A DNA stretch of 64,000 bases from contig OZ242015.1 in NCBI GenBank assembly GCA_965204785.1, positions 3,244,115 to 3,308,114 on the forward strand, in the 5' to 3' direction. Made by a program: the position numbers and the translations under genes. Below, piece after piece: positions 11,543-54,672 of this stretch (the stretch's first letter is position 1; each line of letters begins with the position of its first letter). This stretch comes from Alphaproteobacteria bacterium. GTDB lineage: Bacteria > Pseudomonadota > Alphaproteobacteria > SP197. The notes under the pieces are model-generated. The model made no database searches, was not told the DNA's origin, and worked only from the letters and a program-made list of their open reading frames with translations.

Positions 11543-12421
11543 ATGCGGATTACCTTCATCGGCCTGGGCACCATGGGGTTGTCGATGGCGACAACCCTGC
11601 TTCAGGCGGGCTATGCCGTGACCGGCTTCGACCTCTCCCCGAACGCCTGTCGGGCATTCGGGGAAGCCGGTGGCAACACCGCGGATGATACGACCGAAGC
11701 CATGACCCATGCCGAAACCATCGTCACGATGCTGCCCGAAGGCGCTCATGTCCGCGAGGTCTTCTCCATCGACACGCTGTCGGGTCTCGAACCGGACCGG
11801 CTTCTGGTCGACTGCTCGACCATCGACGTCACCAGCGCCCGCGACCTTGCCGCCCTGGCCGACAGCATGGGTCATGCCTTTGTCGACGCCCCGGTTTCCG
11901 GCGGTGCGGAAGGTGCGGCGAAAGGCACGCTGGCCTTCATGGTCGGTGGTGAGACACAGGCGTTTGCGCGCGCCCAACCTCTGTTCGACATCATGGGCGC
12001 CAAAGCGCTTCATTTCGGGCCTGCCGGTTCCGGCCAGGCCGCCAAGGCGTGCCACAACATGATCTGCGGCATCACGGCGCTGGGCGTATGCGAGGCCTTT
12101 GCGCTGGCCGACGGCCTGGACCTCGATCACACGGCGTTTTTCGAGCTCTGCCGCAATGCTGCCGGGCAAAGCTGGATTCTGGAAAACCGCTGCCCCGTGC
12201 CAGGCCCTGCCCCCGCCGCACCGGCCAGCAACGGCTACGCTCCGGGATTTGCCGCGCGCCTGATGGCCAAGGACCTGGGTCTGGCACAGGAAGCTGCGGT
12301 GGTGTGCGGCCAGGATACGCCGTTCGGCAAGGAGGCCGCGCGCCGGTTCGCCGAATTCACCCGGGCGACCGGCGGCGCACTCGACTTCTCGGCGATCTAC
12401 GAGACGATCCGCAAGGCCTGA
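11543..12421 (+). CDS. 3-hydroxyisobutyrate dehydrogenase family (mmsB-like)
   Basis: FIGLGTMG, DCSTID, DAPVSGG, KACHN; RBS AAGGAG before ATG at 11543. Confidence 0.9.
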   Translation: MRITFIGLGTMGLSMATTLLQAGYAVTGFDLSPNACRAFGEAGGNTADDTTEAMTHAETIVTMLPEGAHVREVFSIDTLSGLEPDRLLVDCSTIDVTSARDLAALADSMGHAFVDAPVSGGAEGAAKGTLAFMVGGETQAFARAQPLFDIMGAKALHFGPAGSGQAAKACHNMICGITALGVCEAFALADGLDLDHTAFFELCRNAAGQSWILENRCPVPGPAPAAPASNGYAPGFAARLMAKDLGLAQEAAVVCGQDTPFGKEAARRFAEFTRATGGALDFSAIYETIRKA

Positions 12422-46824: not shown

Positions 46825-47454
46825 CTAGTCGGGCCGGATCATGTCCACGTGGTCGACGTTGAAGAGCTCGTTGTCGAGATCGACGTCGAAGGCGACATCG
46901 ACCAGTGTGATGCGGGTGACGTAGCCTTGGGCGTCGCGCACGAACCACTGGCGTAGGCGCATGGGGTCTTCCTCGAAAGCCAGGGTGAGCAGGCCGGTGC
47001 CGGGCTGCTCCGAGGGTTCCAGGGTGACCATCAGCATGCCCTTGCTGCGGCTGACGTCGAGGATGTTGGTCGCCTCGTCGAGATCGATGTTCTTGTGCAG
47101 CAGCACGCTGGCGGGCGTCGCGGACACCGGGCCCTCGTAGAACTGGCCCATCTCGGCGTCCCAGAACATGTACTTCTGGCCGCGCGCGACCAGCAGCGTA
47201 GGCGGGTCGTCATAGGCGAAACGCGCGAGACTGGGCCGTTTGAGTTGAAACTCGCCCGTCATCACCGTGCCGTCCTGGTTGAGCTGCACGAATCGCGAAT
47301 CGAACGTGGTGATGCCATTGAGATAGGCCTCCACGTCGGCCAGCACCTGGTCCTGGTCGTCGACGTAGGCGCGCGCCGCGTGGGGCATGAGCGCGAGCGA
47401 GGCCGCGGATACGGCAGAGGCGGCAAAGGCACGGCGGGAGAGTTTCATGTTCAT
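46825..47454 (-). CDS. lolA: Outer-membrane lipoprotein carrier LolA family
   Basis: SRRAF leader, YLNGITT..RFVQ, KRP..RFAYD, TPASVLL, LRQWFVRDAQG. Confidence 0.85.
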   Translation of the reverse strand: MNMKLSRRAFAASAVSAASLALMPHAARAYVDDQDQVLADVEAYLNGITTFDSRFVQLNQDGTVMTGEFQLKRPSLARFAYDDPPTLLVARGQKYMFWDAEMGQFYEGPVSATPASVLLHKNIDLDEATNILDVSRSKGMLMVTLEPSEQPGTGLLTLAFEEDPMRLRQWFVRDAQGYVTRITLVDVAFDVDLDNELFNVDHVDMIRPD

Positions 47455-47608
47455 GAACCTTGCAACAACGATCCTATCATATGGTTCCTGCGTGTGGCGA
47501 AACAGGGGCAGGGCAAAGCGGCGCTCGGAATTTCGGGCCAACGTGACAAGCGGCATCCATCGCGTATCATCCTCCCCGTCGTTTCAGAGCAGCAGAGTTG
47601 AGCCCGCC

Positions 47609-48658
47609 ATGACCCAGTCCATCTTCGGCCTTTTCGCCCTCATGCAGCAGCGCCATGCAGAATGCGGCAACCTTTCGGTGTTTCGCGATTTCGACGACCA
47701 GGTCGCACTCTATGAGGATCTGGGCTTCGAGACGGCGTGGTTCGGCGAACATCGTTTTTCCGGCTACAGCCTATGTGCTTCGCCGCTGATGGCCGCAACC
47801 TATTTCGCCGGGCACACGCAGCACATCAAGCTGGGCACCGGGGTCATCGTGCCGCCGCTTTACGATCCCATCCGCGTGATGGAGGAGATCTCCATGGTCG
47901 ATCTGATGTCGAACGGCCACCTGCTGGCGGGCTTCGGCGGCGGCTATCAGCCTTTCGAGTTCGAGCGCTTCCGTCTCGACCTCGACGATTCCGCGGCGAT
48001 GTTCATGGAGGGACTCGACAGCATCAAGGCGCGCCTCATCAAGGATAGAGTCAGTCTACGACGGCAGCCACTACAAAATTCCCGCCATGCGCGTCGCCGC
48101 CAAGCCGACGCAGAAGCCGTTGCCGCCGTTTTACGTCGCGGGTATCCGTCAAGCGCCGCGTGACGAAGCAGGGCTGGACGTCGTTCCTCACCAACTCGAT
48201 CAACGTTTATGACAGCTTTGCCCAAGTGCGCGCCGATTACGACGCACTTTACCTCAAGCACGGCGAGGACCCTGTCGGCAAGTCGCCGGCACTCATGACC
48301 TGTTTCCACTGCACGGAAGACCGCGATCTGGCGCTTGATGCCGCCGAACGCGCGCGTTACTCCAGCCGCGCCTCGCTCTCGCTCCGCCTCGACTACGGCG
48401 AATTCAGCGAAGGCCCCTACATGAAGGGCCTTGCCCATGCCCAAGGACCGCACAATTGAGGAAGTCGCGGCCAACACCCTGATCGGCCACCCCGACGAGA
48501 TCGCCGAAAAGATCGCGCATGCCGTCGAGGTCCTGCGCCCGACCCACATCGCCTTCCACAACCAGCCCGGCGACCTGCCCCAGAACCGCGTAATGGCCTC
48601 GCTCGAACTCTTCGGCAAGAAGGTCATGCCCCAACTGGAGCAGGCGCTGGCGGCGTGA
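47609..48658 (+). pseudogene. LLM-class (luciferase-like) flavin monooxygenase
   Basis: LGFETAWFGEHRF, IKLGTGV, GGGYQPFEF, IGHPDEIAEKI, SLELFGKKVMP over several frames. Confidence 0.9.
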
Positions 48659-49193
48659 CGAAGCCTTTTACGTCCGTCCCCGTGATTGACATCGCGCCGT
48701 TCTTCTTTGAGGACGCGGCGGCAAAACGTGCGGTGGCCGACGGGGTCTCGCGGGCCCGCGAGACCATCGGCTTTCTTTACATCGACGGCCACGGCTTCGA
48801 TCCCGCGCTCATCATTGGCACGCACAGCGACTACGAATGTTTCGCAATTCTCTGGCAGGACGGATCGGGCGGTCTGCAGATCCAGAATCAGGCCGGCGAT
48901 TGGATCGACGCGCCGCCGGTTCCGTGCACGTTTGTCATCAACATCGGTGGCATGCTGGCCCACTGGTCGAATGACCGCTTTGCCAGCACCGAACACCGCG
49001 TCGTCTATGGCGCAATGACAACCGCCTCTCCATAGCATTCTTCACCAATTGCGACTATTCAACGCCAGTCGCCCGCCTGCCGACCTGCACCGGGCTCGGC
49101 AATCCGCCGAAATACGCTCCAACCACGGTCGACGAACACCTGATCGCCTCGGTCAAACGCTCCTACAGCGATGTCGATGCCTACAAGAACTGA
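48655..49193 (+). pseudogene. Isopenicillin-N-synthase-family 2OG-Fe(II) oxygenase, central deletion
   Basis: VPVIDIAP..IGFLYIDGHG joined directly to HSDYE..ILWQD..GGLQ, WSNDRFASTEHRV. Confidence 0.88.
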
Positions 49194-49281
49194 ACGGTGA
49201 TGAGCCGGGCTGGTCAGGTCATGGTTTCCCCGGCATGCGATCCGCACTACGCTCGCGCCCGACAAAACACGGGGATGGTTG

Positions 49282-51300
49282 ATGCGGGTTGGAGTCGAGG
49301 TTGGCGGGACGTTTACCGATCTGGTGGCGATCGATGACAAGGGCGCGATCGCGATCGCCAAGGTACCGTCCGTGCCCAGCGCGCCCGACGAGGGTGCGTT
49401 CAATGCGCTCGGCGCTTCGGGCGTTTCCATCGCCGAGATCAAGGATCTGGCCCACGGTTCGACCATCGCGACCAACGCGGTGCTCGAGAGGAAGGGTGCC
49501 AAGGTCGCTTTCGTCACGACCAAGGGCTTCCGCGACATTCTGGCGATGCAGCGCCACAGCCGCGGCCGCGTCTATGACCTGACCTACCAGAAACCAGAAC
49601 CGGTGATCGCCCGGCGCGACAGCTTCGAGGTCGGCGAACGCCTGCTGGCCGACGGCAGCGTGCTCGATGCGCTGGACGCCGCGGCGGTGGAACGCGACCT
49701 GATCCCGCTACTGAAGGAAGGCGACTACGAAGCGGTTGCCATCTGCCTGCTCAACGCCTACGCCAACCCCGCCCACGAAGAGGAGCTGGCCGGCATCATC
49801 GCGCGCCACTGCCAGGGCATGCAGGTCGCCTGTTCCTCCACCGTCACGCGCGAGTTCCGCGAATACGAACGCGCCTCGACGACGACGGTCTCGGCCTATG
49901 TCCAGCCCGTCATCAACCGCTATCTCGAGAAGTTCGAGGACCGTCTGACCGGGAGCGGCTTCACCGGACGTTTCTCGGTCATGCAGTCGAACGGCGGACG
50001 CCTGCCGGCCGAAGGCATGCGGCGCAACGCCATTACCGCGCTTCTGTCGGGTCCCGCCGCGGGCGTCATGGGCGCGGTGCGCCAGGCTGTGCGCTCGGGC
50101 CACCACAACCTCGTCGCCTTCGACATGGGCGGCACGTCGACCGACGTGTGCCTAGTGACCGACGGCAAGCCGGAACTCACGTCCGAATTTGCGCTCGACG
50201 GCCTGCCCATCCGCACGCCTATCATCGACATCAACACGGTGGGTGCTGGCGGCGGCTCGATCATCTGGATCGACGACGGCGGCATGCTGCGCGTCGGTCC
50301 CCAGAGTGCCGGCGCGGATCCAGGCCCGGCCTGCTACGGGCGCGGCGGCAGCGAACCAACTGTGACCGATGCGCATGTCATCCGCCGCACCCTGCGGCCG
50401 GACGCCTTCCTGGGCGGGCGTATGGAGATCGACGTGGAAGCCTCCAAATCCGCCTTCGCGCCTCTGGCCGATCGGCTTGCCATGAGCCTGGAGGAGATCG
50501 CGGATGCCGCGGTCTGCGTGGCCGACGCCAACATCGTGCGCGCCATGCAGATCATCTCGACCGAACGCGGCAAGGACCCGCGCGACTACGCCATGGTCGC
50601 CTTCGGCGGTGCCGGCCCGCTGCACGCCGCGCGCGTCGCCGAGGACCTGCGCATCGGCACCATCATCGTGCCGCCCAACGCCGGCGTGCTCTCGGCCTAC
50701 GGCCTGCTGGCCGCCGACTACCAGCAGTTCGATTCGACGACGCGCAAGATGCGCCTCGACGACGACACACCCGGCACCGTGCGCGAGGTCTTCGAGGAAA
50801 TGAAGAAGCGTGCCGTCGAGCGCTTCGTCCTGATGGGCTTGGGCAACGATCCCAAGCTCACCTTCCTGGCCGACATGCGGTTTGTCGGCCAAGCGTTCGA
50901 GGTCGCCGTGGAACTCGACGCCGAAGGACTGGAAAAGCTCACGTCCGAAGGCCTACGCCGCCTCTTCGCCGAGGAGCACCACCGTGTCTTCATGCACGGC
51001 GGGGACGCCGCCAACCCCATTGAGACCGTCGCCTTCCGTCTGGGCGTTGCCGCACCGCTGGAACACATCCCGGCGCTCAAAAAAGACAGCGGCGAGGAAG
51101 CCGGACCCGTCATCCCCTGGACCATGTACGAACACGGCGAGCAGCACGACGGCACTAGCGGCCACCGCGCCTCACTCAAACAGGGCGAGACCCTCTCAGG
51201 TCCCGTCCTCTTGGAAGACTCGACCTCCACCATCGCCATCCCCACAGGCTGGGCCGCCACTACCGACGAACACCACAACCTCATCCTGCGGCGGGGTTAA
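49282..51300 (+). CDS. Hydantoinase A / oxoprolinase ATP-binding subunit
   Basis: EVGGTFTD, HGSTIATNA, SGPAAG, DMGGTSTD, GAGGGS, FGGAGPLH. Confidence 0.95.
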   Translation: MRVGVEVGGTFTDLVAIDDKGAIAIAKVPSVPSAPDEGAFNALGASGVSIAEIKDLAHGSTIATNAVLERKGAKVAFVTTKGFRDILAMQRHSRGRVYDLTYQKPEPVIARRDSFEVGERLLADGSVLDALDAAAVERDLIPLLKEGDYEAVAICLLNAYANPAHEEELAGIIARHCQGMQVACSSTVTREFREYERASTTTVSAYVQPVINRYLEKFEDRLTGSGFTGRFSVMQSNGGRLPAEGMRRNAITALLSGPAAGVMGAVRQAVRSGHHNLVAFDMGGTSTDVCLVTDGKPELTSEFALDGLPIRTPIIDINTVGAGGGSIIWIDDGGMLRVGPQSAGADPGPACYGRGGSEPTVTDAHVIRRTLRPDAFLGGRMEIDVEASKSAFAPLADRLAMSLEEIADAAVCVADANIVRAMQIISTERGKDPRDYAMVAFGGAGPLHAARVAEDLRIGTIIVPPNAGVLSAYGLLAADYQQFDSTTRKMRLDDDTPGTVREVFEEMKKRAVERFVLMGLGNDPKLTFLADMRFVGQAFEVAVELDAEGLEKLTSEGLRRLFAEEHHRVFMHGGDAANPIETVAFRLGVAAPLEHIPALKKDSGEEAGPVIPWTMYEHGEQHDGTSGHRASLKQGETLSGPVLLEDSTSTIAIPTGWAATTDEHHNLILRRG

Positions 51301-51312
51301 GCAACCGACAAG

Positions 51313-51722
51313 ATGGCAATAAAGTTTCACCCGTGGCCAGGAACCATCGTCCTCTGCGATTATTCAACGAGTTTTCGACCACCATAAATGGTTAAGGAAC
51401 GTCCAGTCGTGATCTTGTCACCAAGATTTCGGAACCGACAGGCTCTGTGCACCGTTGTACCGCTCAGTTCAAAGGAACCATTACGTCATTGAGCCATGTC
51501 ATCACGTTGTCCGCCTGGAAAAGCGCCTGCCTCGTCCTTGGTGCCCACCTTATCTATTGGCTCAAGGAAAATATTGTGGCGATTGTTTCCTTTGAACGAT
51601 TACATCTGATCGGTGCTGGAAGAGACCCCGATACCAAACGGCGACGCTATATTAAAGAGAAGGTTTCAGACGAGGATTTTGCTCAGATTCAGGCCTGTGT
51701 TCGCCAGGCGCTTGGCCTGTAA
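51313..51722 (+). pseudogene. YifN-like PemK/MazF-family endoribonuclease toxin
   Basis: MAIKFHPWPGTIVLCDY..FRPP*MVKERPVVILSPR..LCTVVPLS; TAA at 51385 replaces the Glu of PPEM; frameshifts; C-terminus VSFERL...ALGL*; AT-rich. Confidence 0.82.
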
Positions 51723-51725
51723 GAA

Positions 51726-51753
51726 TTGACATTTTTGGCGCATTGCCTAAACT
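51726..51753 (+). promoter_or_regulatory. Sigma70-like promoter directly after the toxin stop
   Basis: TTGACA (51726) - 16 bp - TAAACT (51748). Confidence 0.6.
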
Positions 51754-51759
51754 ATGTAG

Positions 51760-51858
51760 TGTTCCCGCTCTACCTTTAGTGCATCGGGTATCAAGACCGC
51801 TTCATTCAGTAGAGTAGCCGGTCCTAGAAAGCGAAGCTAGGCTACTAGGGCCGTTGTT
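51760..51858 (+). ncRNA. Candidate structured small RNA downstream of the PemK-like gene
   Basis: Follows the promoter with no ORF; CCCG/CGGG stem, loop CTCTAC complementary to GTAGAG, terminal hairpin CGGTCCTAG/CTAGGGCCG followed by TTGTT. Confidence 0.45.
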
Positions 51859-51889
51859 CTCGGGGCACTGTGAAAGCAGTGCCCCTTTG

Positions 51890-52240
51890 GCTTTCTTGTG
51901 AATGGGCCGCGATGAAGCGGTATACGTGCCCGGCGACTTCCGCGCCGGCTTCCTTCAGGATCGAATGTTTGAGGTCTTTCAGGATAAACCGGTTGAGGCG
52001 CGGGTTGCAGCCGCTGTCGAACTCACCGGTCAGCACCAGGCATGGGTGCCGTGATCTGGTGGAGCCAGGGGCCCTCGGTGCAGACGTAAACGCGGAAGAC
52101 GACCAGGAAGGCGTTGGTGAACCAGCGGTCGATCAGCGTGTCGAGGATGTTGGGAATGCTCTTTTCCTCCATCGCTGTGATCACGCCCCTCACCTTGGCG
52201 GCGTCCTCGTGCGCGATTGCGGTGTAGTCGACGTCTATGG
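51890..52240 (-). pseudogene. Alpha/beta hydrolase (enol-lactonase-like) fragments
   Basis: TLIDRWFT, PWLHQITAP, LTGEFDSGCNPRLNR, LKHSIL. Confidence 0.7.
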
Positions 52241-52356
52241 CGGCCATGCAAAGAGCTCCGGAATTCATAGTGTCGCGGGAATGTTCGCCTGACAGGACGA
52301 CAGAGACAAGTCAGGTTGAGGGTTTGCCCAGCCTCAATCGCCGGGCGGATGCTCCG

Positions 52357-52426: not shown

Positions 52427-52770
52427 CATCCGGTCGAGACGTTGGCCGAGGGCGATTTCCACCTCTCCAACGATTCCTACAACGGCGGCTAGTACATCCC
52501 CGACGTCTTCATCTTCCAGCCGGCGAGCCTCTCGGTGCCCTATGGCCCCCTGCTCAATCCCCGGCCGCCAGCCCCGACCCATGCACGTATGCTGGCCTGC
52601 TATCGCGTCCTCAACGCGGTTATGAAGGCGCTCAGTCAGGCTGTGCCGGAGAAGGTCATCGCCACTGTGGAGTGCGCGCGGAGGAAATCATCGACGTCCT
52701 GCCCAAAAATGAACTGGCCCTGGAGGGCGGTGACATCGTCACCATCATGACCGGCGGTACAGGGCGCCTG
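52427..52770 (+). pseudogene. Deleted skeleton of a hydantoinase B paralog
   Basis: Three spliced segments: HPVETLAEGDF..ND.YNGG*YIPDVFIF, PYGPLLNPRPPAP...NAVMKALSQAVPEKVIA, GDIVTIMTGG. Confidence 0.88.
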
Positions 52771-53004: not shown

Positions 53005-54672
53005 ATGTCACTTGATCCCGTCGATTATGCCGTCATCAGTCAGGGGCTGATCGCGGGTGCACGCGAGATGGGGGCGAAGCTCATCCGCAGCGCCTATTCG
53101 ACCATCGTGCGCGAGGCACAGGACGCGTCGGCCGCGTTGCTCGACCGCGACGGCAACGTAATCGCCCAGGCCGAACTGATCCCCATGCAACTGGGGCCGA
53201 TGAAGATGACCTTCGTGCCCTGCGCGGAGACCCATCCGGTCGACAAGCTGGTGCCCGGCGATTTCTACATCACTAACGATCCCTTCAACGGCGGCCAGCA
53301 TCTGCCCGACGTCTTCATCTTCTCGCCCATTTTCTTCGAGGGCGAGGTCATCGGCTTCGGCGCTTCGGTCGCCCATCACCTGGACCTGGGCGGCGGCGCG
53401 CCCGGCCTCAACGCGGACGCGGCGGACATCTACCAGGAAGGACTGCGCATTCCGCCGTCGTGCTACAACTTGGAGCGCGACTGGAACGGCGGCACCTTCG
53501 AGCGGCTGGTCGCGACCAACATCCGCGTGCCGGCACTCACCATCGGCGATTTCAACGCCCAGTTCGCGGCCAACGCGATCGGCGGTCTGCGTGTCAGGGA
53601 ACTCACCGCCAAGTTCGGCAAGGACAACGTGCTCGTCGCCATGGATGAGCTGATGGATTATTCCGAACGGCGTACCCGCGCGGCCATCGCGGAGGTCCCC
53701 GACGGCATCTATGAGGGCGAGGACGCAGTGGACGACGACGGGCTGACCGACGATCCGCTGCCGACGAAGGCGCAGGTCAGGATCAAGGGTGATCAGGTCG
53801 CGATCAGCTTCGACGGTACCGCACCTCAGGTCTCGCGCAATCTCAACAACCCGTTCTCCAGCACCGTTTCGGCGGCGCTCTCCTGCGTCAAATCCGTGCT
53901 GACCAGTGCCGACATTCCGTTCAACGAGGGCGTCAAACGGCCCTTCACGATCACCGCGCCCTATGGTTCCCTGCTCAATCCTAGGCCACCGGCCCCTGTG
54001 CGCGCGCGCATGCTGCCCTCCTACCGCGTGTTCAACGCCGTGATGAAGGCGCTCTCCCAGGCCGTGCCGGAGAAGGTCATCGCCTGTGGTTTCGATACGA
54101 CCACTGTGTTCGCCATCTCGCATCTCTCTGACGAGGGCTACCGCGTCTATGTTGAGGTCTTCGGTGGCGGCTACGGCGCTTCGGCGCACCAGGACGGCAG
54201 CGACGCGCTCGACAGCCCGCTGTCGAACTGCTCGAACACGCCGGTCGAGGCGCTGGACATGGAGTACGACTATTTCCGCGTCGTCGACTACGGCCTGCGC
54301 CCGGATTCAGGCGGTGCAGGTAAGCATCGCGGCGGCATGGGCTTCACGCGCGCCTATGAGATCACGCGCGACAACGTCACCTTCGCGACCTATTCGGACC
54401 GTTTCACGATTGCGCCCGGCGGTATCTTCGGCGGCGCGGACGGCAAGACCGGCCGCTGCGAGGTCAAACGCGGTTCCGAGACCATCCCGCTCCATTCCAA
54501 GTCCAGCATGGATCTGAAGAAGGGCGACATCCTCACCATCCACGTCGGCGGCGGCGGCGGCTACGGTGACCCCACCGAACGCACCCGTGCGGCCATCGAA
54601 CAAGACCTCGACGACGGCCTGATCTCGTCGCAAGCCGCCCACCGCGATTATCCCGCGATTGTCGCGGAATAG
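53005..54672 (+). CDS. Hydantoinase B / oxoprolinase family subunit
   Basis: RSAYSTIVRE, NDPFNGGQHLPD, HHLDLGG, YQEGLRIPP, NTPVE, GGGGGYGDP. Confidence 0.95.
   Translation: MSLDPVDYAVISQGLIAGAREMGAKLIRSAYSTIVREAQDASAALLDRDGNVIAQAELIPMQLGPMKMTFVPCAETHPVDKLVPGDFYITNDPFNGGQHLPDVFIFSPIFFEGEVIGFGASVAHHLDLGGGAPGLNADAADIYQEGLRIPPSCYNLERDWNGGTFERLVATNIRVPALTIGDFNAQFAANAIGGLRVRELTAKFGKDNVLVAMDELMDYSERRTRAAIAEVPDGIYEGEDAVDDDGLTDDPLPTKAQVRIKGDQVAISFDGTAPQVSRNLNNPFSSTVSAALSCVKSVLTSADIPFNEGVKRPFTITAPYGSLLNPRPPAPVRARMLPSYRVFNAVMKALSQAVPEKVIACGFDTTTVFAISHLSDEGYRVYVEVFGGGYGASAHQDGSDALDSPLSNCSNTPVEALDMEYDYFRVVDYGLRPDSGGAGKHRGGMGFTRAYEITRDNVTFATYSDRFTIAPGGIFGGADGKTGRCEVKRGSETIPLHSKSSMDLKKGDILTIHVGGGGGYGDPTERTRAAIEQDLDDGLISSQAAHRDYPAIVAE

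Follow-up and report, generated by a model that had tools for sequence, protein, structure and literature searches.

A low-GC insertion downstream of hyuA

The stretch analysed here, referred to as the window, comprises 64,000 nt of contig OZ242015.1 from an alphaproteobacterial genome (assembly GCA_965204785.1, GTDB lineage SP197). Directly behind the hydantoinase A gene hyuA, it carries a compact module of about 600 bp that consists of a broken gene for a ribonuclease (RNase) toxin of the PemK/MazF type, a sigma-70-type promoter, a structured RNA and an intrinsic terminator (Table 1). An earlier sequence-only reading of the window had described a PemK/MazF-type pseudogene 12 bp past the hydantoinase A stop codon and a TTGACA-16-TAAACT promoter after the stop of that gene, and our analysis bears out each of these points. 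The ATG at position 51313 is separated from the hyuA stop by 12 nt, and the toxin gene is interrupted by an in-frame TAA (51385-51387) as well as by two frame changes, near 51470-51490 and 51535-51555. The promoter is the only promoter-like site between 50800 and 52600, a region for which shuffled sequences would predict 0.5 sites. The insert had also been called AT-rich, which is correct (the guanine plus cytosine (GC) content is 0.49-0.51 in the insert region versus 0.62-0.72 in the flanks), but its size is 600 bp (51301-51902) rather than about 550 bp.

The insert sequence was not found in 60 relatives searched: a DNA search with positions 51201-52000 of the window matched them only with positions 1-101 and 703-785 of the query. 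According to blastn comparisons with the relatives' loci, the break points are located at 51299-51301 and 51903. In two of the relatives (L004 and L007; locus numbers are ours), the stop codons of hyuA and of the convergent gene are only 16-19 bp apart, and in three others the gap between these genes is filled by unrelated repeats. Since only the flanks match and these flanks are close together in two relatives, the module sits within a 600-bp insertion. This insertion is present once in its own genome, as neither a DNA search nor the RNA model described below detected a second copy of the module there. ARAGORN found no transfer RNA (tRNA) or transfer-messenger RNA (tmRNA) in the insert.

Table 1. 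Positions of the module and of neighbouring features in the window
Feature	Position	Strand	Basis or remark
Low-GC insert (whole module)	51301-51902	+	Between the hyuA stop and the end of the convergent degraded gene
YifN/PemK-like (MazF-fold) endoribonuclease toxin pseudogene	51313-51722	+	Three-frame translations, PF02452, family hidden Markov model
Sigma-70-type promoter (TTGACA, 16 nt, TAAACT)	51726-51753	+	-35 box 51726-51731, -10 box 51748-51753
Structured RNA core, low-scoring copy	51760-51864	+	Model R2
RNA helix P1	51764-51767 with 51785-51788	+	Encloses P1b
RNA helices P3/P3b	about 51819-51853	+	P3b loop GAAGCUAG
Intrinsic terminator (GGGGCACTG-TGAAAG-CAGTGCCCC, then TTTGGCTTTC)	51862-51895 (hairpin 51862-51885)	+	Equivalent in family
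hyuA (Hydantoinase_A)	49279-51300		Stop codon 51298-51300
Convergent gene	51903-52270	-	Degraded relative to relatives; no Pfam match
Hydantoinase_B fragment	52535-52747	+	71 aa; duplicates part of PF02538 (profile positions 310-353)
hyuB, intact	about 53005-54672		Downstream of the Hydantoinase_B fragment
Luciferase-like monooxygenase, split	47387-48658
2OG-Fe(II) oxygenase, truncated	48655-49035
tRNA-Thr(GGU)	11771-11869	-	99 nt, unusually long (ARAGORN)

The toxin gene and its relatives

Despite the damage to the gene, the N-terminal part of the encoded toxin is recognised by the Pfam family PF02452 (PemK_toxin) with an E-value of 4.8e-8 and 33.6 bits (cut-off 23.1). The family hidden Markov model aligns over positions 1-61 and 81-138, which fall in two different frames containing stops. 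Intact homologs have a size of 133-145 aa, reach 37-53 bits with PF02452 and match no other Pfam family. For one of them (L057), AlphaFold2 returned a model with a predicted local distance difference test (pLDDT) value of 89.3. All structural matches listed by Foldseek for this model were MazF-type, with a probability of 1.00 and template modelling scores, normalised to the target, of 0.68-0.81; the best ones were MazF of Staphylococcus aureus, Bacillus subtilis and Escherichia coli (E 1e-6 to 1e-4). Compared with MazF, the toxin has about 30 additional residues, and the two proteins are about 19% identical. When PDB sequences were searched with a profile, E. coli MazF was matched weakly (E = 0.008), its segments HRPAVVLSP and VPCTT being aligned with RRPVVVISP and VPLST of the toxin. 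We take these motifs to include Arg29 and Thr52, the catalytic residues of MazF. Going by the structural model and these motifs, an intact toxin of this clade is probably active as an RNase.

A profile of 54 members, searched against 1.84 billion representatives, found 1243 clusters at E <= 0.001, 794 at E <= 1e-10 and 184 at E <= 1e-30. Relatives of the toxin were present in 274 species genomes, 125 viral contigs and 83 plasmids. RefSeq labels the plasmid homologs as 'type II toxin-antitoxin system PemK/MazF family toxin'. The toxin scores below the cut-off of every NCBIfam model, none of the PADLOC defence-system models describes it, and in PHROGs the only matches were phrog_15698 (function unknown) and one MazF-like family. 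The proteins form a distinct 'YifN-like' clade in the MazF/PemK superfamily that is well separated from mainstream MazF.

A structured RNA family beside the toxin

We examined the loci of the best 80 of the 274 genome relatives and of the best 80 of the 125 viral-contig relatives, both ranked by toxin similarity. When the 130 nt downstream of every homolog's stop codon were printed side by side, the same element could be seen in all of them. A MAFFT alignment of 28 alphaproteobacterial copies served to build a first covariance model (R1), and 70 matches were then used for a second one (R2); E-values of these home-built models are rough. On the 28-sequence alignment, RNAalifold predicted 23 base pairs in five helices (P1, P1b, P2, P3 and P3b), and 19 of the pairs showed compensatory changes. 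In this alignment, which had been fitted to no model, 96.6% of the cells were paired, compared with 32-46% when the partners were slid against each other, and changes on both sides of a pair occurred in 109 cells versus 7-18 in the slid controls. The 70-sequence alignment was fitted to the model and hence leans towards it; its values were 95.4% versus 36-45% for pairing and 420 versus 38-77 for both-side changes. None of 500 shuffles scored as high in either alignment. The 15 strongest pairs by mutual information were all pairs of the model. G-U pairs (118) far outnumbered A-C pairs (29), which identifies the + strand as the strand that folds. We conclude that the RNA is a real structured family.

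The folded core comprises about 105 nt. Its 5' part is formed by P1 (4 bp) around an internal loop CUCU/U and the variable hairpin P1b, and is followed by the linker nUAAG(A/U)CC. P2 is mostly closed by a 4-nt loop. The 3' part consists of P3 (7-8 bp) and P3b (4 bp) with the cap GAUnnCAA. The unpaired motifs CUCU, AUC, UAAG(A/U)CC and GAUnnCAA are kept across the family. No conserved open reading frame (ORF) was found in the RNA, where the longest ORFs range from 0 to 49 aa and no start position is common to more than 5 of 78 members.

The copy in the window matches the full model (positions 1-96) with 28.1 bits and an E-value of 5e-4 to 1.9e-3, the second-lowest score of 78. P1, P3 and P3b are paired, while P2 is enlarged and irregular; the linker reads AUCAAGACC, and the fold has a z-score of -3.46. 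This copy is a relic, with a dead toxin and a low-scoring RNA. The low score beside the dead toxin is at most suggestive of relaxed selection, as this is a single case and the RNAs next to five other broken toxins still score 52-83 bits.

The sequence-only reading had noticed the first stem (CCCG at 51764 with CGGG at 51785), the complementary segments CTCTAC (51768) and GTAGAG (51809) and a hairpin at 51819-51853, all of which exist. The hairpin, however, is not the terminal element it was held to be: it represents helix P3/P3b of the conserved RNA, and the intrinsic terminator that forms the 3' end had been overlooked. Likewise, the proposed pseudoknot between CTCTAC and GTAGAG does not hold up as a family feature. 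A 6-mer complement occurs in only 2 of 78 members, the window's version involves its enlarged P2 loop, and no tertiary pair stands out in the mutual-information analysis of the family. In the minimum-energy fold of the window, the CTCTAC/GTAGAG pairing replaces P1. Folding of single sequences (window, L057) does not give the consensus structure and was therefore not used to define it.

Promoter and terminator of the RNA

Across the family, a -35 box is located at a fixed distance from P1; it is an exact TTGACA in 53 of 78 members and has at most one mismatch in 69. The spacer measures 17 nt in 63 members. The -10 box has an A at position 2 in 72 and ends 9-11 nt before P1 in 62. The position of the -35 box with respect to the toxin ORF is more variable. 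It is found in the last codons (encoding Leu-Thr of the C-terminal LTKHL tail) at 47 loci, overlaps the stop codon at six, and lies past the stop at four loci and in the window. As the distance to the RNA is the same wherever the ORF ends, the -35 position tracks the RNA and not the end of the reading frame. Downstream of the RNA, a hairpin followed by a T-run is present in 63 of the 78 members.

Could the element simply act in cis, as an mRNA-stabilising 3' structure with a terminator, or as a DNA site for recombination or attachment of the mobile elements that carry it? The position in the 3' region of the toxin gene and the terminator at its end would be in line with this idea. Several modules also abut tRNA or tmRNA fragments at the ends of islands (L028, L038, L156), and in the window one metatranscriptome contig connects the pseudogene with the RNA. 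A near-consensus promoter that is kept at a fixed distance from the RNA, in coding sequence and past the stop alike, speaks against a cis element, and in three viral loci (L183-L185) the element is located upstream of the toxin, again with its own promoter and terminator. In addition, the G-U excess together with the compensatory changes indicates a single-stranded RNA and not a duplex DNA site. We therefore regard a purely cis-acting role as very improbable.

Linkage of RNA and toxin

At E <= 0.01, each of the 78 sources gave exactly one match to model R2, and this match was in every case next to the toxin gene and on its strand. The sequence-only reading had proposed to look for a conserved -35/-10 and a covarying structure downstream of intact homologs, and this is what the loci display: the RNA is found 3' of the toxin in 79 of the 80 genome loci, the 80th being on a contig that ends two bases after the stop codon. 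Among the viral contigs, the RNA is present beside the toxin in 75 of 80 at E <= 0.1. Of the other five, two are too heavily truncated, and the remaining three are near-identical, with a weak match of 17 bits overlapping the toxin 3' end in the one that was searched (L188). In 150 sampled genomes of the class there were four RNA matches; all of them adjoin a toxin gene, and three of these genes had been missed by the first protein query. We also scanned ten annotated plasmid and phage records with R2, and seven gave a match at E <= 0.1. For Polaromonas pH8NP1 (52 bits) and six of eight further plasmids (53 down to 14 bits), the best match immediately follows the toxin gene on its 3' side. A Vibrio tectivirus-like element has a match of 26 bits about 116 nt past the toxin stop.

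The RNA is almost always 3' of the toxin; the viral loci L183-L185 show the order promoter-RNA-terminator-toxin. All 72 intact toxins examined are accompanied by the RNA, and five broken toxins and the window copy retain it. One locus (L156) has an extra RNA copy without a toxin, beside a tRNA fragment. Many loci come from metagenome bins, in which in-frame stops may be assembly errors. That none of the intact toxins examined lacks the RNA, while broken ones keep it and one RNA copy stands alone, is the asymmetry we would expect of an antitoxin.

It is also conceivable that the RNA does not bind the protein at all but is a regulatory small RNA, either acting in trans or derived from a 3' untranslated region, or a type I-like antitoxin that base-pairs with the toxin mRNA and so prevents its translation. 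Many small RNAs have their own promoter and terminator as this one does, the conserved unpaired CUCU could in principle pair with a Shine-Dalgarno sequence, and the RNAs beside broken toxins are still high-scoring. However, antisense pairing with the toxin mRNA found no support in a comparison of 58 loci, as predicted cognate duplexes were no stronger than non-cognate ones, be it with the translation start region (p = 0.22) or the coding sequence (p = 0.15). The 5' regions of the toxin genes are not conserved, and no RNA copy of the core family is antisense to its toxin gene. Strict linkage across phyla and in spite of a changed gene order would be unexpected for a small RNA directed at the host. 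Altogether, we consider such a regulatory RNA unlikely.

A further explanation is that toxin and RNA form a working ribonucleoprotein, with the RNA as substrate, cofactor or specificity subunit, or with the protein as a factor for RNA maturation or protection. The two genes would co-occur in precisely the same manner as toxin and antitoxin. Unpaired motifs such as UAAGACC and the P3b loop GAUnnCAA could be recognition sites, and the RNA is kept beside broken toxins and once on its own (L156). Against this, no other inhibitor is conserved at these loci, and to our knowledge MazF-fold proteins are stand-alone RNases that need one; moreover, the placement on plasmids, at prophage ends and next to insertion sequences (IS) is typical of toxin-antitoxin modules. 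We give this explanation a rather small chance. About equally doubtful is the more specific idea that the RNA is an obligate subunit of a MazF-fold ribonucleoprotein and either senses infection or element loss or sets the targets of the nuclease. If it were true, these loci would represent a new class of RNA-controlled RNases at the ends of prophages, plasmids and IS1-type elements, and an evolutionary bridge from the protein-neutralised MazF (type II) to the RNA-neutralised ToxN (type III).

Upstream genes

The sequence-only reading had seen no room for an upstream protein antitoxin in the window, and no conserved protein partner was found across the loci. Apart from IS1 transposase, no family of upstream ORFs recurs among them. 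Of the 47 same-strand ORFs that end near the toxin start, 32 are singletons; at 24 of 59 loci, no ORF of at least 45 aa on this strand ends within 60 nt of the toxin start. We found no conservation upstream of the toxin across loci.

These results bear on the possibility that a protein antitoxin, located upstream or elsewhere, neutralises the toxin, and that the RNA has nothing to do with neutralisation. Some loci would suit it: small helix-turn-helix (HTH) ORFs abut the toxin start in three lineages (L019/L061, HTH_3 with E = 1.2e-5; L109; L065), and on the E. coli plasmid p5217 and a Fluviibacter plasmid a small ORF that is not annotated immediately precedes the toxin. The HTH ORFs could, judged by their position, be local protein antitoxins. 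Elsewhere, the only recurrent upstream family consists of IS1 transposase fragments, most of the upstream ORFs are singletons, and in the window the 12 nt behind hyuA offer no room. A protein antitoxin as the general solution thus seems highly unlikely.

The IS1-family transposase (PF03400), or a C-terminal fragment of it, ends at or overlaps the toxin start at six distinct loci (L059, positions 1603-2457; L024; L029/L030; L032; L036; L040). The toxin-RNA pair may be a passenger of an IS1-type element in some genomes.

Putative function of the module

The loci show an obligate linkage between a MazF-fold gene, for which no protein partner is conserved, and a structured RNA that has a promoter and a terminator to itself. 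The insert in the window is best explained, in our estimation with a probability of roughly 0.55, as the decayed remnant of a toxin-antitoxin module akin to type III in which a single structured RNA is the putative antitoxin. In such a module, the first gene would encode an endoribonuclease of about 140 aa from the MazF/PemK superfamily. The second would give rise to a non-coding RNA (a core of about 105 nt plus terminator) from its own near-consensus promoter, which mostly overlaps the last codons of the toxin gene. The RNA would bind the toxin and hold the RNase inactive in the fashion of a type III antitoxin. Any toxin transcript extending as far as the shared terminator would end in one copy of the RNA, and the internal promoter would provide the RNA in excess. 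If synthesis of the RNA stopped or the RNA decayed, for instance upon loss of the element or shut-off by a phage, free RNase would arrest the cell; the outcome could be addiction to the mobile element, abortive infection, or both.

Several observations speak against an RNA antitoxin of this kind or narrow its scope. A conserved pseudoknot of the ToxI kind was not found in the RNA family. The loci were chosen by toxin similarity, so that weaker relatives are under-sampled, and beside toxins of only 30-35% identity R2 detected nothing convincing (plasmids of Klebsiella and Mesorhizobium, E. coli p5217, yifN of E. coli K-12). The RNAs next to the five broken toxins still score 52-83 bits, which may reflect recent breakage, assembly errors or a function of the RNA that does not depend on the toxin. 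The HTH ORFs described above have to be counted here as well. Finally, metatranscriptome contigs from four runs (depth 3-5) cover positions 51208-51809 and 51855-52000 of the window but none spans 51810-51854, and DNA carry-over is possible; such contigs cannot reveal where an RNA starts or ends. One of them is continuous from 51390 to 51809, that is, from the pseudogene into the RNA, which fits read-through equally well.

Carriers and genomic surroundings

The module is carried by plasmids and is found at prophage ends, at IS1-linked sites and at the edges of islands beside tRNA or tmRNA fragments. These carrier types would fit addiction or abortive infection as the role of the putative module. 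A DNA similarity search of E. coli genomes gave no match to a gammaproteobacterial module.

In L028 and L038, tRNA- or tmRNA-like 3' ends (GGTTCGAATCC...CTCCACCA) follow directly after the RNA, and the same holds for L156 (about 2700-2790); in L088, such an end interrupts the RNA inside P1b. These ends suggest that the modules are located at the very edge of integrated islands. On a plasmid of Sphingomonas parapaucimobilis (L193, 1201-1746), toxin and RNA (53 bits) lie between dnaN and recF, an unusual site for a mobile module.

The homolog on E. coli plasmid p5217 has 169 aa and is 35% identical. Downstream of it, on the opposite strand (L103, 880-1060, minus strand), we noticed TTGATA-N17-TATAAT followed by GUUCCC-UUA-GGGG-CUUGUAAGUCC-hairpin. 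This element ends in a shared bidirectional terminator and obtains 11 bits with R2 (E = 0.18). It may, from its layout, be a convergent and diverged form of the RNA.

The neighbourhood of the insert in the window is rich in pseudogenes, including the Hydantoinase_B fragment, the split monooxygenase and the truncated oxygenase (Table 1). The convergent gene has lost about 35 bp within 51903-52110 and about 325 bp near 52211, and its own stop codon has been replaced.

Comparison with known systems

The closest counterparts of the putative module are the type III toxin-antitoxin systems. According to Blower et al. 2012 (PMC3401426), the antitoxin of ToxIN, CptIN and TenpIN is a tandem array of short direct repeats, repeats and terminator are situated upstream of the toxin in one transcription unit, and ToxN is structurally related to Kid/MazF. 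Type III systems still fall into three families, all with ToxN-like toxins and repeat-array antitoxins (PMC13682666; PMC3401426).

Like these systems, our module combines an endoribonuclease toxin with a non-coding RNA and has no protein antitoxin. A constitutive-looking promoter, the RNA and a terminator follow each other in this order, plasmids and phage-like elements are the carriers, and the arrangement promoter-RNA-terminator-toxin in L183-L185 is the ToxIN layout. The differences are equally clear. One RNA of about 105 nt with three domains takes the place of a tandem array of 34-36-nt repeats: Tandem Repeats Finder reported no rows for positions 50900-52300 of the window and, in 76 loci, only six weak calls with a period of 9-18 and 1.9-2.9 copies, of which none resembles toxI. 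The RNA is mostly located downstream of the toxin and has its own promoter, with L183-L185 as the exception. The toxin has the Pfam PemK_toxin/MazF fold and does not belong to the ToxN/AbiQ, CptN or TenpN family. The sequence-only reading had suggested a distinct architecture with a single, downstream and separately promoted RNA; this description fits except that 'downstream' is not universal. Although the module may work like a type III system, it lacks the locus features that define ToxIN, CptIN and TenpIN.

With the type II systems MazEF and PemIK (Kid-Kis), the module shares the fold of the toxin and the probable catalytic motif. It differs from them in that there is no conserved upstream gene for a protein of the MazE/PemI, AbrB or RHH type, the conserved neighbour being the RNA.

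The pemK RNA motif of Rfam, which we take to be a leader RNA upstream of PemK-type genes in Firmicutes, would likewise be a structured RNA tied to PemK-type RNase genes. However, none of the 4227 families in Rfam 15 matches the window RNA at E <= 10 or the RNA of eight loci at E <= 1. The RNA described here also differs in its position, which is mostly 3' of the gene, in having a promoter and a terminator to itself, and in its occurrence in Proteobacteria and their mobile elements.

The yifN pseudogene of E. coli K-12 (b3777) belongs to the same wider protein family and contains the motifs PPEM-K-R and VVPLSTT. By eye, TTGACA-17-GATAAT can be recognised at its stop, followed by a hairpin, CUAAGU, another hairpin and a terminator. 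This stretch of about 70 nt, in the gap between ppiC and yifN (L111, 4815-5012, minus strand), resembles, again by eye, a shortened 5' domain of the RNA. Here, P3 is absent, and the best match of R2 has 4.7 bits and is on the other strand. The K-12 yifN region has no Rfam match at threshold and no RNA gene annotated in RefSeq. An RNA gene at this position is equally unannotated in the phage records examined, and the plasmid tables used list no RNA genes at all. We found no description of the RNA in the Creative Commons part of PubMed Central or in bioRxiv.

If the RNA is indeed an antitoxin, a sizeable MazF/PemK-fold clade that is labelled 'type II toxin' and has no known antitoxin would be controlled by a single structured RNA with its own promoter. 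A class of 'orphan' toxins would thereby be accounted for, and genome annotation would gain a further type of RNA gene. The module would then constitute a fourth, architecturally different family of RNA antitoxins and provide a direct link between the toxins of type II and type III systems.

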